Of a stretch of 12,748 nucleotides of DNA, positions 6,371 through 12,748 are shown piece after piece. Under the pieces are notes generated by a model that worked only from the letters and a program-made list of their open reading frames with translations, was not told where the DNA came from and made no database searches. Location of the stretch: contig JAWCFL010000016.1 in NCBI GenBank assembly GCA_038858525.1, positions 30,297 through 43,044 of the forward strand, given 5' to 3'. Numbering within the stretch: position 1 is the stretch's first letter; each line of letters opens with the position of its first letter. A program made the translations under genes and the position numbers. The DNA is from Candidatus Jordarchaeales archaeon (GTDB taxonomy: Archaea; Asgardarchaeota; Jordiarchaeia; Jordiarchaeales; Freyrarchaeaceae).

Positions 6371-6420
6371 TTTACCCTAAAATCTTGAAAATATTTAACT
6401 CTTCAACCTTCAAAGTTACT

Positions 6421-6496
6421 GCAGGCTCTCCTCCTAAAAGGCTAAAATGAACAGATTGCTTGTTTAACCTTCTAATCTGTTCATGGCGTCTTTTTT
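6421..6496 (+). ncRNA. Candidate small hairpin RNA (or palindromic operator)
   Basis: Perfect 11-bp inverted repeat (6447-6457 / 6474-6484), outer stem AAAAGGC/GTCTTTT, T6 at 6491-6496, and GAAAA-TATTTAAC at 6387-6399 about 26 nt upstream of 6421. Confidence 0.35.
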
Positions 6497-6600
6497 AGAC
6501 ACTTGCCGCCACTTTTCCGCATAAAAATAAAAGAAAAAACATTAATGCCCTGCCCCCTTGAATGTAGCAGCAGAGCTCCTTTCACTATGGGGGTTTCTTC

Positions 6601-8151: not shown

Positions 8152-8325
8152 TTGAGAGTTAATGATGAGCTTTGTGGTGTTTGCTCTGGTTGTGCTTCCG
8201 TATGCCCCAGAGGAGCCATAAGTGTATCTGAGAGGGGGTTAACCGTTGACTCTAACCTGTGCAACAATTGCGGTGTTTGCGCGAGTGTGTGTCCCGTGGG
8301 CGCTATAACTGTTGAAACAAAGTAG
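8152..8325 (+). CDS. 2x[4Fe-4S] dicluster ferredoxin (57 aa), not in the ORF track
   Basis: Manual translation from TTG 8152 gives MRVNDELCGVCSGCASVCPRGAISVSERGLTVDSNLCNNCGVCASVCPVGAITVETK, with two CxxCxxCxxxCP motifs. SD GGAGAGGTG lies 7 nt upstream. Confidence 0.95.
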   Translation: MRVNDELCGVCSGCASVCPRGAISVSERGLTVDSNLCNNCGVCASVCPVGAITVETK

Positions 8326-8335
8326 TTGGAGGTGG

Positions 8336-9556
8336 ATGAGCTTGAATTACGACTTGGTTATTGTTGGGGCTGGACCCGGCGGCACGTCAACGGCAATCTC
8401 TGCTCTGAAGGCTGGCGGCAAGGTTATGATTCTCGACAGAAAAACCAACGTGGGTGTACCTGTTCAGTGTGGTGAAGCTATAGGAAAAACTGGCCCAAGT
8501 CTCGCCGAGATAGATGTCCCGAAAAGAGCCGTCTTGAACCCGATAAGGGGGTTCAAGATATTCAGTCCAAACTTGACGCCTGTGGTCTACGCTAAAAGCG
8601 AGGCTGAAGGGTACATTGTGGATAGGCGTGTCTTCGACAAGGAGCTACTTGCACGCGCCTGCGACCTTGGCGCCGACGTTATGGTGGGGGCGAACGTGGT
8701 TGACTTAATTTACGAGGACGGCAAGGTTTCAGGGGTTGTCGCCCGCTGCTTCGGGGAGAAGGTTGAAGTTCGGGGGGAAGTAGTAGTAGGGGCGGACGGC
8801 GTTAACAGCACTGTTGCCCGCATCTCAGGCCTAAGGAAGTTCATTAAGCCCCGCGACCTTGACACCAGCGCCCAGTTCGAGATGGTAGGTGTCAACATTG
8901 AAGACGTAGACCTCATGGAGTTCTACTTGGGTCGTAATGTTGCCCCGAGAGGTTACGTGTGGGTTTTCCCCAAAAGCGAGAATAGGGCTAACGTCGGCAT
9001 AGGGATTGGTGCAGGTATGGGCGAGAAGACTGCCTATGGGTACCTAATGGACTTCATAAAGAACAACCCGCGAGGAAAGGAGTTATGTAAAGATGCTAAG
9101 CCCATCGAGTTTAGGGTTGGAGCTATACCATTAGGGGGGCCCAACGCCAAGAACGTTGCTGACGGGCTCATGCTTGTCGGCGATGCTGCGGGACAGGTTC
9201 ACCCAATAACGGGGGGAGGCATAGGCTACGCTATGGTTTGTGGCAGCATAGCTGGAAAAGTTGCTGTTGAGTGCATAGAGAACGGCGACGTGAGCGAGAA
9301 GTCCCTTTCGAAGTATGAGTCTCTTTGGAGAGAGAAGTATGGACACGAGTTCAGTCAAATGTTAGCCCTCAGAAACCTTCTTGAGGAGACGGACGACGAA
9401 GTTCTGGACGACTTAGCGAAGATATTGACGGGCGAGAACGTTGTGGAGCTCACAGCAGGAAAGAAGATAGGCGTCGTTCTCAGGGCTGCGGCGAAGGGCA
9501 ACGTTAAGCTCATTAAGCTACTAAACGAGCTGAGGAAACTCCAGCTAATACAGTAG
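8336..9556 (+). CDS. Digeranylgeranylglycerophospholipid (geranylgeranyl) reductase family flavoprotein
   Basis: DLVIVGAGPGG FAD motif, PVQCGEA, DRRVFD, GYVWVFPK, VGDAAGQVHPITGGGI. SD GGAGGTG at 8328-8334 places the start at ATG 8336 or TTG 8342 rather than 8312. Confidence 0.92.
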   Translation: MSLNYDLVIVGAGPGGTSTAISALKAGGKVMILDRKTNVGVPVQCGEAIGKTGPSLAEIDVPKRAVLNPIRGFKIFSPNLTPVVYAKSEAEGYIVDRRVFDKELLARACDLGADVMVGANVVDLIYEDGKVSGVVARCFGEKVEVRGEVVVGADGVNSTVARISGLRKFIKPRDLDTSAQFEMVGVNIEDVDLMEFYLGRNVAPRGYVWVFPKSENRANVGIGIGAGMGEKTAYGYLMDFIKNNPRGKELCKDAKPIEFRVGAIPLGGPNAKNVADGLMLVGDAAGQVHPITGGGIGYAMVCGSIAGKVAVECIENGDVSEKSLSKYESLWREKYGHEFSQMLALRNLLEETDDEVLDDLAKILTGENVVELTAGKKIGVVLRAAAKGNVKLIKLLNELRKLQLIQ

Positions 9557-9568
9557 GAGGAAAAGTGT

Positions 9569-9895
9569 TTGACAGTCTCGTTCGAGGAATTCGCGAAAAT
9601 GGACATAAGAGTAGGCAGAGTAGTTGAAGCCGAAAGGGTGGCGGGAGCCAAAAAACTTGTTAAGGTTCTAGTTGACCTAGGAGAAGAAAAACCGAGGCAA
9701 GTTGTAGCCGGCATAGCCGAATATGTAAACCCTGAAAGTCTTCTGGGAAAAAACGTGGTTGTGCTCGCCAACCTGGAGCCGAAAAAGTTCATGGGATTGG
9801 AGTCTAGAGGAATGCTACTGGCAGCGGACGTCAACGGCAAACCAGTACTCTTAACAGTCGAAGAGTCTGTCCCCCCGGGAACCAGGGTCAGGTAA
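9569..9895 (+). CDS. Stand-alone tRNA-binding OB-fold protein (MetRS C-terminal domain / Trbp111 / CsaA family)
   Basis: SFEEFAKMDIRVGRV, RQVVAGIA and VVLANLEPKKFMGLESRGMLLAA signatures. Confidence 0.93.
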   Translation: MTVSFEEFAKMDIRVGRVVEAERVAGAKKLVKVLVDLGEEKPRQVVAGIAEYVNPESLLGKNVVVLANLEPKKFMGLESRGMLLAADVNGKPVLLTVEESVPPGTRVR

Positions 9896-9907
9896 CACGG
9901 TGAGCCC

Positions 9908-10555
9908 ATGAGTAAACTACGAACCTATGCCAATGAGTTCGGACCAATACTTATCCCCCTCCTTGTTTTCTCCGCTTTAAACCACGTTTTCAACACTGAG
10001 TTAAGCCTTCTCGCCCAGCCTGTTTACGGTTACAGTTTCTCTGGCAGACTAATAAGCGTCATCCAGCTCTCCTTCTCAGTGGCCTTCAATTACAAGCCCG
10101 TCCCGCCAGCCCCCCTCCTCCAGCAAGCATTTTTCTATGTATTTCAGCTTGACGTTAGGGTAATAGTGCTCCTCCTCTGGTTCTCCATAGGCTTCCTTTT
10201 CATGCTTGCCTCCGGCAATCCACGTGGCGTCTTCCAGTCATCCTCCCCTCTTCTCTTCTTCATGGTCTCTATCCTCCTTTGGGGTCTCAGCACCAGACAC
10301 CCCTACGCTTGGTTCCTCCTCACAGTTTTCCAAGCCAACCCTCTCCTGACGTGTGTCGCAGGGTATGTCTTAATTGTTCTAACGCTGGGTCTAAGCGCCT
10401 ATATATCTGAAATACTCCTAAATCTTAGGCGCAGGGTGGAGCCGGTAGAAGAGCAAACGGTAAGGGTATCATGTCCCAGGTGTAACGCGGAGTTTAGGTC
10501 TAACCCGGTATACTGTTCATTTTGTGGATTTCGCATCAAAAACACGGAAAATTGA
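9908..10555 (+). CDS. Membrane protein with a C-terminal zinc ribbon
   Basis: SD GGTGAG at 9899-9904. Multiple TM segments; C-terminal CPRC-x10-CSFC. Confidence 0.8.
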   Translation: MSKLRTYANEFGPILIPLLVFSALNHVFNTELSLLAQPVYGYSFSGRLISVIQLSFSVAFNYKPVPPAPLLQQAFFYVFQLDVRVIVLLLWFSIGFLFMLASGNPRGVFQSSSPLLFFMVSILLWGLSTRHPYAWFLLTVFQANPLLTCVAGYVLIVLTLGLSAYISEILLNLRRRVEPVEEQTVRVSCPRCNAEFRSNPVYCSFCGFRIKNTEN

Positions 10556-10674
10556 TGTTTTCATTATCGCATCTTGTTGCTTAATCATCCTTTATTCTCG
10601 AATTTTTCATTGAAATTTTCTTAATATTCATCAATTAATAATGTATATTCCTCAAAAAGTAGGAGAGTTTTATG

Positions 10675-10688
10675 GAAAAACTTATATA
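10675..10688 (+). promoter_or_regulatory. Strong BRE-TATA promoter
   Basis: GAAAAAC-TTATATA. The standard ~26-nt spacing predicts a TSS at about G10711. Confidence 0.65.
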
Positions 10689-10710
10689 CCTGTTTACGTC
10701 CTCATTTTTA

Positions 10711-10798
10711 GTGGCTGAGCCGTCTAATCTCTCCCCTCCTCCCAACACGCCCTCCTCCCCCTCCTTATTAATTCTTGTGAAAACGGCGATGAGGCCGC
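10711..10798 (+). ncRNA. K-turn-closed, CU-rich-loop structured RNA (stand-alone sRNA or 5' leader of the TrmB gene)
   Basis: GUGGCU-GA-GCCGU (10711-10723) pairs with ACGGC-GAU-GA-GGCCGC (10783-10798) as a complete K-turn. The ~59-nt pyrimidine-rich loop contains repeated CCUCCU. Confidence 0.65.
10734..10766 (+). repeat. CCCTCCTCCC direct repeat x2 plus a third CCTCCTT
   Basis: Copies at 10734-10743 and 10750-10759, with the partial copy at 10760-10766. Confidence 0.9.
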
Positions 10799-10810
10799 GC
10801 GTCTTCTTCA

Positions 10811-10823
10811 GAAAAGTTAATTA
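10811..10823 (+). promoter_or_regulatory. Possible second BRE-TATA directly upstream of the TrmB gene
   Basis: GAAAAG-TTAATTA predicts a TSS at ~10845. SD AGGTGAT is at 10859-10865. Confidence 0.4.
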
Positions 10824-10865
10824 CCTGCTAAAAACCTCATAATTATTAGTGTTTTCTTAGGTGAT

Positions 10866-12748
10866 ATGATGCCTCTTAAGCCTGTTTCGAAGGAGTTGCT
10901 GGGGAACTTTGGGCTTAGTGAAGGCGAGATCAACGTTTACTTGGCGGCGTTGTCCCTCGGCGAGTTCTCTGTTTATGACCTAGCGTGTCACCTGTTGCTT
11001 CCCGAGGAAGCAATTAAAGATGCTGTTGAGCAACTTGTGGAGCGTGGCTTCCTACGCAGGCTTCCAGCTTCAGTTGAGCGCTACGTTGCGCTCGAACCCT
11101 TCCTGGAGCTTTTCATCGAGCTTTACGAGCGGGCTGGAAGGGATCTGCACGCTCTCAGGGATGAATTATCGTCCTCCTTCGAGGAGGCTTCTAGGCGTCT
11201 CCGTGACCTTTCAAAAACCATTGTGGGTGGGGTTTCCGACGAGCTTAGCGGCGCCACTGAGGATGTGAGGCTTCTACTTGATTCCCTTGTCGGCGAGTAT
11301 AAGAAGATCGTGGAGGAGGGCGGGGATATTCTGAGAGGAGTTGTGGTTTCCGTTGAGGAGTTGTTGGGCTCCTTCCTCTCTACCTTTATGCTTAAAATGA
11401 GGGATGTTGAACGCTTTGAAGGAAACGCTATTCCTCTCTCTGAGATAATGCGCGAGTTCCTGAGGCGTGTCGATGAGGGCGTTCGCATAACCACCGATGC
11501 CCAACTCAAGCTTATAAGTGCCCTACAGAGTGAGGTTTCTAGGCGTCTTGATGGCCTCATGGTTCAGGTCAGGACAATGCTTGAAAATCACTATAAGTCT
11601 CACGTTAAATCAGTTGAGGAACTGGTGCAAGCTCTCGGGGAGATAATAGGGGGAGAAATGAAGCGGTTGAGAGAGTTCGTAGAGAAACAGGAGGTTGACT
11701 CGACCTGGCTGGTTGAGGGAATGACCGTCAGGGTTGGCGGTCTCATCCAATCCGCCGGGAGAAAGTTCACTCACCTGGTTACAGATGCCCTCCAGAGGGA
11801 GAGGGAGCTTGCCAAAGTCTTTCTTTCTAAGCTGGATGAACTGGTAGGCAAGGCTTCAGTTATTGCGAAGAATCTCGAGTCACTTAGCAGGACAAAGGGG
11901 TCAATACTCGAGAAGTTCAGCTCATCTAAGATCAGGACGGCTATGGAGGCTTGGTCGCGTGAAGTTTCAAGCTTAGCGGGCTCTTTACGTGAAACTTACA
12001 GCGAAATATTATCCATTGAGGAGGAACTAGTTAGGCGAGTTGAGGATGAGGTCGTAAGAAGCACTGTTAATGCTCTGGAAGAAGAACGCGAAAACCTCCA
12101 GAATGTACTCATGGGGATAAGGAAAGAAGTTGAAGAGAGGCTTAGCGTGCTCCCAGAGATTTTTGAGACCAAAATTACAAATGAGATAAACTCCTCTCTC
12201 TTGAGGAGCACGAGAGGATGCGAAGACGCCACGAACGCCATAATATCATTCATGTCCGACGAGTTTAAGGCTCTCGTCAAGAGTCTAGTATCCTCCCTTG
12301 CTTCATACGCTCAAGAGGTGTCGGAGCTCTTCGCCTCCTATGCTAAGGGAGCCATCGAAACCGTTAAGCTCGTTGAGTTCAGCGTGCTTGTCCTGCGCAG
12401 AAAGGCTTCCATGATCATGCAGGAAAAGGCATACGAGTATGACAGGAAGGGCGAAGCCCTGATAGAGAACGTGGAGAAGGTGAATCACGCAAAGCTGGCG
12501 GAAGTTAAAGGAAAAGTAGCTGCGAGAAGAGAAATCATCAATCAAAAGGTTGTACGCGAGCTTGATGGTGCGGCGAGTAGCATAGAAGAAGTTGTTGGGA
12601 AAGCTAGAAAAACAATGGAAAATGCAGCGCTCAAGATAAGGGAAGGCGTTGAGGTTTTAGAGGACATATGGCACCGCTCGCTCGACGTCACCCCCATATA
12701 CACTGGCACGTGGACCATTACAGGTAAGGACGCTATAGCCAAGCAGAT
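10866..12748 (+). CDS. TrmB-family regulator-like protein: N-terminal winged HTH, ~500-aa helical/coiled-coil insert, start of a TrmB C-terminal-like domain (3' truncated by the window)
   Basis: Manual translation is open from ATG 10866 (or 10869) to the window end, at least 627 codons. The N-terminus LGNFGLSEGEINVYLAALSLGEFSVYDLA...LVERGFL...RYVALEP is TrmB-HTH-like, and the tail TWTITGKDAI resembles the start of the TrmB effector domain. The track omits it because no stop codon falls inside the window. Confidence 0.88.
   Translation, partial: MMPLKPVSKELLGNFGLSEGEINVYLAALSLGEFSVYDLACHLLLPEEAIKDAVEQLVERGFLRRLPASVERYVALEPFLELFIELYERAGRDLHALRDELSSSFEEASRRLRDLSKTIVGGVSDELSGATEDVRLLLDSLVGEYKKIVEEGGDILRGVVVSVEELLGSFLSTFMLKMRDVERFEGNAIPLSEIMREFLRRVDEGVRITTDAQLKLISALQSEVSRRLDGLMVQVRTMLENHYKSHVKSVEELVQALGEIIGGEMKRLREFVEKQEVDSTWLVEGMTVRVGGLIQSAGRKFTHLVTDALQRERELAKVFLSKLDELVGKASVIAKNLESLSRTKGSILEKFSSSKIRTAMEAWSREVSSLAGSLRETYSEILSIEEELVRRVEDEVVRSTVNALEEERENLQNVLMGIRKEVEERLSVLPEIFETKITNEINSSLLRSTRGCEDATNAIISFMSDEFKALVKSLVSSLASYAQEVSELFASYAKGAIETVKLVEFSVLVLRRKASMIMQEKAYEYDRKGEALIENVEKVNHAKLAEVKGKVAARREIINQKVVRELDGAASSIEEVVGKARKTMENAALKIREGVEVLEDIWHRSLDVTPIYTGTWTITGKDAIAKQ

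Follow-up and report, generated by a model that had tools for sequence, protein, structure and literature searches.

A conserved small RNA of Asgard archaea with a likely kink-turn clasp and a CCUCC-rich loop

The stretch of Candidatus Jordarchaeales DNA analysed here (12,748 nt; the window) carries on its + strand, as judged from its sequence, an independent non-coding RNA gene of about 88-95 nt at positions 10711-10798, and we have little doubt that it represents a small RNA family that has so far gone uncatalogued. The ends of the RNA are likely clasped by a kink-turn, and the large loop between them displays overlapping copies of CCUCC. The small RNA most likely regulates translation, to judge by its motifs and their conservation. 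The remaining best guess on its mode of action, to which a probability of roughly 0.45 is assigned, is that its C-rich blocks would pair with purine tracts resembling Shine-Dalgarno (SD) sequences. The features of the locus are collected in Table 1.

Table 1. Features of the small RNA locus in window coordinates. BRE, NC and C are used as in the text.
Feature	Position	Strand	Remarks
BRE (GGAAAAA) and TATA box (CTTATATA)	10674-10688	+	Promoter of the small RNA gene, as read from the sequence
Predicted transcription start	10709-10712	+	Inferred from promoter distance; first bases of the terminal helix
Small RNA gene	10711-10798	+	Stand-alone, non-coding; clasp at the ends, C-rich loop inside
Outer (non-canonical, NC) helix, 5′ strand	10711-10716	+	Pairs with 10793-10798; U10716 is kink-turn position 3n
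G-A of the D-like box (CUGA)	10717-10718	+	Non-bulged strand of the tandem sheared G.A pairs
Inner (canonical, C) helix, 5′ strand	10719-10723	+	Pairs with 10783-10787
Loop, 59 nt	10724-10782	+	Predicted largely unpaired
Invariant C-rich block	10728-10765	+	CCCCUCCUCCC (10733-10743), AACA linker, CGCCCUCCUCCCCCUCCU (10748-10765)
Inner (C) helix, 3′ strand	10783-10787	+	Five pairs with 10719-10723
C-like box GAUGA	10788-10792	+	Bulge G10788-A10789-U10790, then the G-A of the tandem sheared pairs
Outer (NC) helix, 3′ strand	10793-10798	+	G10793 is position 3b
Pyrimidine tract TCTTCTTC	10802-10809	+	Likely termination region; weak in this genome
Separate BRE/TATA (AGAAAAG-TTAATTA)	10810-10823	+	Conserved in the genus; bounds the small RNA and lies outside it

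Results and Discussion

A conserved, non-coding RNA gene with its own promoter

BLAST detected homologous stretches in each of the other three species of the genus and, within the family, in a second genus. In four relatives, identity was 80-99% over the small RNA and 74-89% over the BRE/TATA block at 10674-10688, and the neighbouring sequence diverged, with 30-55% identity in the spacer between TATA box and start and 49-79% in the downstream spacer. In the second genus, the BLAST similarity was limited to 10712-10815, nearly exactly the proposed RNA. Such conservation of an intergenic segment is not the rule in these genomes, since another candidate small RNA of the window (6387-6498), in which a promoter, CUCUCCUCCU, an 11-bp hairpin and a T6 run are all present, had no detectable match in 10 other genomes of the order.

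The centre of the TATA box lies 26 nt from G10711, and direct reading thus recovered the spacing between the TTATATA box and the predicted start that had been claimed in the initial annotation of this DNA. Among the 27 tabulated members of the family, a BRE/TATA-like box begins 32-48 nt before the kink-turn 3n position (32-42 nt in 25 of them). At the other end, 19 of these 27 members have three or more consecutive T after the kink-turn GA, and in 16 this run begins 9-12 nt past the GA. The BRE/TATA at 10810-10823 serves the downstream TrmB-domain gene.

An open reading frame of 56 codons (10672-10842) overlaps the RNA in this genome, and it was rejected as a small protein gene because its frame is broken in relatives. 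The ATG lies upstream of the TATA box and is replaced by CTG or TTG in G001 and G004, and stops and indels of 1-2 nt break the frame in G003 and G002. The initial annotation had set the RNA against this ORF, asking which of the two is conserved; the kink-turn and the CCUCC repeats were kept and the ORF was not. The ORF reading is largely refuted.

Distribution and gene context of the family

The covariance-model search suggested by the initial annotation was carried out on a sample of the phylum, with a first model built from seven sequences and a second from 25. Matches were found in all 11 genomes of the window's class and in all three of a second class, and further matches in families f20 (2/3 genomes), f15 (1/4) and f6 (1/1) of the phylum sample. 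The large families f9, f7, f5 and f12 of this sample gave no covariance-model matches except ones judged spurious; large samples were scored with stricter filters, under which weak members may be missed. The family thus spans several classes of one archaeal phylum, with lengths of 83-154 nt. Genomes carry one to two clear gene copies: each f1 genome has a single copy, and most f2 genomes have two paralogues, about 122 and 150 nt long; a third match in G005 is weak and doubtful. A pattern scan of metagenomes added 12 further copies, on contigs, and no copy was found on viral contigs. The first pattern scan of species genomes was dominated by chance matches in GC-rich bacteria.

Several weak model matches were discarded. 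The one at L188 (G145 contig 63, 634-774) is a CRISPR array, a repeated 29-nt unit with spacers, and was classed as a false positive; those in G105, G144 and G005c were judged spurious.

A search of the whole window against Rfam 15 at E values up to 1 gave no match, and a literature search of incomplete coverage found no description of such an archaeal RNA, in agreement with the initial view that it belongs to no described archaeal class. For this phylum, no regulatory RNA was found in Rfam 15 or in the searched literature.

The gene order geranylgeranyl reductase, tRNA-binding-domain protein, RNA and TrmB-domain protein is common to both families of the class (window 8312-12746; L138; L144). 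The tRNA-binding-domain protein has 108 aa and is 58% identical between the families, and the downstream TrmB-domain protein contains a long helical region. In the second class, the gene downstream of the RNA encodes a Glu/Gln-tRNA synthetase and is convergent with the small RNA. The variation of the flanking genes among lineages, together with this convergent arrangement, shows that the small RNA is neither a leader nor a trailer (3′ UTR).

The gene immediately upstream of the RNA (window 9908-10555, + strand) has a product of about 200 aa, which contains hydrophobic stretches and, in its C-terminal part, a zinc ribbon (CPxC...SNP..C..CG). A zinc-ribbon protein of the same size is encoded just upstream of the RNA in the second class (L146:1708-2319 and L147:1743-2333, both on the - strand); the matches, at E values of 5e-7 and 4e-10, cover the same ribbon alone. 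Family f2 lacks the protein at this position. This neighbour could be a case of old synteny or a functional link.

A probable kink-turn at the ends of the RNA

The two ends of the RNA contain the standard sequence features of a kink-turn, namely a C-G/G-C helix end, a 3-nt bulge, G.A/A.G pairs and a second helix. In the tandem pairs, G10717 faces A10792 and A10718 faces G10791. Both GA dinucleotides are unchanged throughout the 25 aligned members, which represent 23 distinct sequences, and also in the matches from further families that were read directly. The inner helix, GCCG(U)/(A)CGGC, adjoins the bulge through the C10787-G10719 pair; its GCC/GGC core does not vary, and its fourth pair covaries between A-U and G-C via G.U intermediates. 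Of the 27 tabulated members, 25 carry GGCGAUGA unchanged; the variant in G045 is AAUGA and that in G014 is GGUGA. In the outer helix, compensatory changes were observed from C-G to U-A at one pair and among six pair types at another.

The initial annotation had described a full K-turn with six NC pairs, tandem G.A pairs and a GAU bulge. These sequence features were recovered and are backed by covariation, with the exception of the sixth NC pair: the outer helix of the window RNA does have six pairs, two of them U.G, but the outermost, 10711-10798, is kept in only 7 of 23 members, and the conserved outer helix comprises 4-5 pairs. The reversed box order was seen on direct reading as described, with the D-like CUGA (10715-10718) at the 5′ end and the C-like GCGAUGA (10786-10792) at the 3′ end; the terminal helix is on the non-canonical side.

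The clasp was supported by covariation analysis of the 23 distinct sequences. Of all cells, 87% were paired, and 25 cells showed two-sided changes against 9.1 expected, a count that none of 500 shuffles reached; in controls with a slid register, all covariation scores were below that of the true register. The alignment used here had been fitted to the covariance model, which favours the structure. This concern is answered by an independent result: RNAalifold, run on a MAFFT alignment of eight diverse members, predicted the clasp alone, with five and four pairs, a 2-nt/5-nt asymmetric loop between the helices and compensatory change at four pairs. The single-sequence fold energy was unremarkable (z = -0.15 for the + strand and -1.46 for the - strand), the + strand value being explained by the fact that energy models do not score kink-turns. 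Taken together, the terminal clasp is a kink-turn with good, though not complete, confidence. Two L7Ae-family genes are present in the host genome, and the small RNA is probably bound by L7Ae, as far as its sequence can tell.

The clasp contains 17 G.U cells, which would give A.C mismatches on the opposite strand, indicating that the + strand is the functional one. It is hardly credible that the locus is instead an element acting at the DNA level (a G-quadruplex/i-motif or a regulator site for the TrmB-like gene) or that the 56-codon ORF is real. The minus strand does have four G runs with short spacers, and the ORF does exist in this genome; yet the strand-specific G.U pairs, the oriented promoter of its own and the T tract speak against a DNA element, as does the position of the RNA beside unrelated genes in other lineages, and the broken frame and unstable start codon described above speak against a protein.

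A C-rich loop that matches the 16S rRNA tail

The loop is composed of 44% C and 6% G. It carries CCUCCUCCC twice and CCUCCUU once, so that the motifs first noted for a mostly unpaired loop of about 59 nt are present, and the loop is unpaired by prediction: when the clasp was forced, 30 of 33 bases in C/U tracts were unpaired in the window RNA. In clasp-forced folds of the whole family, this share was about 53-100% per member and was lowest where a hairpin is inserted.

The C-rich block at 10728-10765 is 95-100% identical in genus and family. It contains five overlapping CCUCC, which is the number in the window RNA, and up to six are found per molecule across the family. Of the 27 tabulated members, 26 retain the core CGCCCUCC, and these come from two classes and two of the three further families; the exception is G014 (f6), in which the tract has diverged and CGCCCUCC is absent. 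The 3′ end of the host 16S rRNA is GAUCACCUCCU, which ends in CCUCCU and shares the CCUCC core with the loop.

Hairpins are inserted in the second C-rich block of the 'b' paralogues of family f2 (L140, L141, L143, L144 and L145) and, at the same point, directly after CGCCCUCC, in the second class (L147 and L162). These insertions are 30-40 nt long and independent, and each brings a GGG run that is predicted to pair with the adjacent C run. They are suggestive of a C tract that can be engaged by purine runs in cis, and may, on the predicted folds, be masking or switch elements.

Relation to known RNAs

The closest structural likeness is to the internal C′/D′ motif of box C/D RNAs, a K-turn or K-loop bound by L7Ae. 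Shared with it are CUGA and GAUGA, the tandem G.A pairs and the GAU bulge, as well as the order of a D-like box 5′ of a C-like box with a canonical stem between them. According to a study on archaeal box C/D sRNA, helix ends could anchor and stabilise the RNA, which is a further likeness to the small RNA (PMC5062973). Unlike the C′/D′ motif, the small RNA has a single box pair, its stem opens into a loop of 59 nt instead of 3-6 nt, and the segments where guides would lie pair with each other; complementarity to rRNA or tRNA was looked for and not detected. A box C/D sRNA, which has box C (RUGAUGA) near its 5′ end, box D (CUGA) near its 3′ end and a terminal stem on the canonical side, was rejected on the reversed order, the missing second box pair, the lack of 10-12-nt guides, an rRNA-operon duplex within background and the lack of an Rfam C/D match. 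An H/ACA sRNA, a hairpin with a pseudouridylation pocket, a kink-turn in the upper stem and an ACA box some 14 nt 3′ of the pocket, was rejected as well: no ACA follows the 3′ helix, there is no pocket, and the clasp is the only conserved pairing. Direct reading thus agreed with the earlier statement that an ACA box and an internal C′/D′ pair are absent.

The same observations bear on a role as an RNA-processing or modification cofactor, in which the kink-turn would recruit L7Ae with Nop5-fibrillarin, or another enzyme, and the loop would pair with a G-rich stable RNA, for instance pre-rRNA. The boxes match the box C consensus at 6 of 7 positions and box D at 4 of 4 in a C′/D′-like topology, and the family is broadly conserved in the manner of housekeeping RNAs. 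We nevertheless regard this role as very improbable. No second box pair was seen, and only 5-6 helix bases precede CUGA, which leaves no guide beside the D-like box; an ACA box or pseudouridylation pocket is likewise missing. The best duplex with the rRNA operon (-32 kcal/mol) falls inside the range for random 10-kb pieces of the genome (-24 to -41), and most families of the phylum sample gave no match to the RNA.

In the cuckoo RNAs of alphaproteobacteria (CcsR1-4 / RSs0680, SmelC397 etc.), CCUCCUCCC is an anti-SD-like loop motif (PMC4615179). Like the small RNA, they display several copies of CCUCCUCCC per molecule in single-stranded form. They differ in being bacterial and Hfq-associated, with each motif in a hairpin loop of its own (PMC4615179), whereas the small RNA is archaeal and holds all motifs in one large loop closed by a kink-turn. 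Membership in the cuckoo family, whose RNAs consist of two to four adjacent hairpins, was rejected: CCUCCUCCC occurs twice, but in one unstructured loop with no conserved hairpins, and there is no Rfam match at E values up to 1. The likeness is most plausibly a convergence.

By analogy, the closest functional precedent is provided by sRNA41 and sRNA154 of M. mazei, which mask ribosome-binding sites (Buddeweg et al. 2018, reviewed in PMC5867862). Both are archaeal intergenic small RNAs with C-rich loops, and sRNA41 masks several sites in polycistronic mRNAs. Compared by description only, they differ in that no kink-turn clasp is reported for them, in their restriction to Methanosarcina and in having targets that were found experimentally.

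Kink-turns bound by L7Ae also occur in archaeal mRNAs, as in the 5′ leader of l7ae, and two studies tie L7Ae to translational control (PMC5539422, PMC6298567). Both cases place a kink-turn outside rRNA and guide RNAs. The mRNA-leader kink-turn belongs to the regulated mRNA itself, at whose ribosome-binding site it lies in cis, whereas in the small RNA it would be the scaffold of a separate RNA with the SD-like logic in the loop.

Y RNAs, which are associated with Ro60, are about 100 nt long and combine paired ends that form a protein-binding stem with a large pyrimidine-rich loop and a 3′ U tract. This overall design is like that of the small RNA. Their protein-binding stem is of another type than the kink-turn, and the likeness is one of analogy only.

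Proposed pairing with Shine-Dalgarno-like tracts

In the proposed mechanism, binding of L7Ae would lock the short helices of the clasp, and the bound clasp would shield both RNA ends from exonucleases and hold the G-poor loop open. The invariant CCUCC-rich blocks, which match the 16S 3′ tail, would pair with GGAGG-type purine tracts of mRNAs, mainly in SD regions, and the pairing would reduce or adjust the initiation of translation for a group of targets. In the longer paralogues, the inserted hairpins with their GGG run would serve as built-in masks of the C run.

The features expected of an anti-SD small RNA are present: a promoter of its own, a T tract, a loop predicted to be unpaired and CCUCC as the core of the 16S tail. 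Upstream of crudely assigned gene starts in the host genome, no 5-mer is more frequent than GGAGG, and GGAGG-N4-9-ATG occurs 968 times against 559 in a backwards control, a 1.7-fold enrichment, confirming genome-wide the heavy use of GGAGG-type SDs noted earlier for the window. Any C-rich single strand looks 'anti-SD', so that the motif alone is weak evidence.

No specific target emerged. When the longest stretch complementary to the C block was determined for each gene start region, the lengths were distributed as in a reversed-block control, with only generic matches of SD length. An exact 10-mer target search returned hundreds of purine-rich coding matches, and in a genome-wide duplex ranking none was better than purine-rich genome sequence generally. 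Where the frame was read, the best genome-wide duplexes were in Glu/Gly-rich coding sequence, including a C9 site inside a radical-SAM-like gene. A search for 13-mer complements across the order gave counts near the backwards control in most genomes. The downstream neighbour gene uses GGUGA, which the small RNA does not match. A run of more than 30 G was found at a contig terminus (minus strand of G000 contig 2, beginning at position 21 of the reverse complement) and is probably an artefact of assembly or sequencing.

Use of SDs was also compared among lineages. In an SD-use index of 151 genomes, lineages bearing the RNA did not use GGAGG more than lineages without it, and the strongest SD signal was observed in families f7 and f14, both of which are without the small RNA. 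The initial annotation had proposed an RNP that pairs with GGAGG ribosome-binding sites; an independent, non-coding and conserved gene was borne out, and neither extended complementarity to start regions beyond that of the control nor a correlation with SD use was obtained.

Two further explanations were considered. As a global SD sponge, an abundant RNA would compete with the 30S subunit for most SDs and damp overall translation. Up to six overlapping CCUCC per molecule (five in the window RNA), the large share of genes that carry GGAGG and the absence of extended, target-specific complementarity are consistent with this idea. Against it, one to two clear copies per genome would require very high expression, the presence of the RNA is uncorrelated with SD use across the phylum, and the invariance of the whole 38-nt block and of a CG dinucleotide exceeds what a generic sponge needs. 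A global sponge is accordingly quite improbable, and the 'multi-target sponge' version is the weaker form of the anti-SD reading.

Somewhat less improbable, and still unlikely, is that the RNA acts as a protein decoy or scaffold, in which the CCUCC repeats mimic the 16S 3′ tail and titrate or deliver proteins that bind the tail or C-rich sequence, for example KH-domain small-subunit maturation factors such as Dim2/Pno1, or initiation factors. The core of the 16S 3′ end recurs exactly in the blocks, their invariance extends well past the 5 nt that SD pairing needs, and no mRNA target stands out. Jia and colleagues are said to have reported in 2010 that an archaeal Dim2-like protein binds a fragment of the 16S rRNA 3′ end, which would also fit a decoy. 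Conversely, no gene for a candidate protein accompanies the RNA across lineages: of the shared neighbours, namely the tRNA-binding-domain protein, the zinc-ribbon protein and the TrmB-like regulator, none is universal. In addition, GAUCA, which lies upstream of CCUCC in 16S rRNA, is not copied in the small RNA.

Pairing of the C-rich blocks with SD-like tracts is retained as the preferred reading. More tentatively, and on balance doubtful, the RNA may be an ancient Asgard-type RNP regulator, an L7Ae-locked mimic of the 16S tail that would compete for SD sites or for tail-binding factors, with the lineage-specific inserted hairpins, each masking one repeat, as switches.

A second C-rich locus nearby

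A second locus resembling a C-rich small RNA is conserved in the genus and was observed in relatives at L191 (G004 contig 6, about 14000-14300, + strand) and at L192, L193 and L194 (G002, G003 and G001, minus strand). In G002 and G004, where its placement was verified, it shares the orientation of the kink-turn RNA and follows it at a distance of about 6.5 kb. A BRE/TATA is succeeded by a single-stranded CCUCCC-rich tail and then by a 13-bp GC stem that encloses a 6-bp inner stem, the loop of which carries UCCCUCCUCCCC; no kink-turn was seen. In the window's own assembly, where the contig ends 2 kb after the kink-turn RNA, the locus had no BLAST match. This second, unrelated locus suggests that C-rich regulators are a recurring theme in the lineage.

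Implications

Few archaeal regulatory RNAs are understood. The small RNA described here has clear boundaries, a structure backed by covariation and, in the kink-turn and L7Ae, a biochemical handle; the covariance model could seed a new RNA family entry, and the hypothesis of anti-SD pairing is open to simple standard assays. We would class the RNA as a structurally new variant on the known theme of anti-SD small RNAs.

The L7Ae/kink-turn platform is known from guide RNAs, RNase P and rRNA. If the proposed function is confirmed, this platform would also have been recruited for a trans-acting translational regulator, and the 'CCUCC seed' solution would have arisen independently in archaea and bacteria. 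Should the RNA prove to be an RNP that mimics the 16S tail, it would represent a mode of translational control without a described archaeal counterpart.
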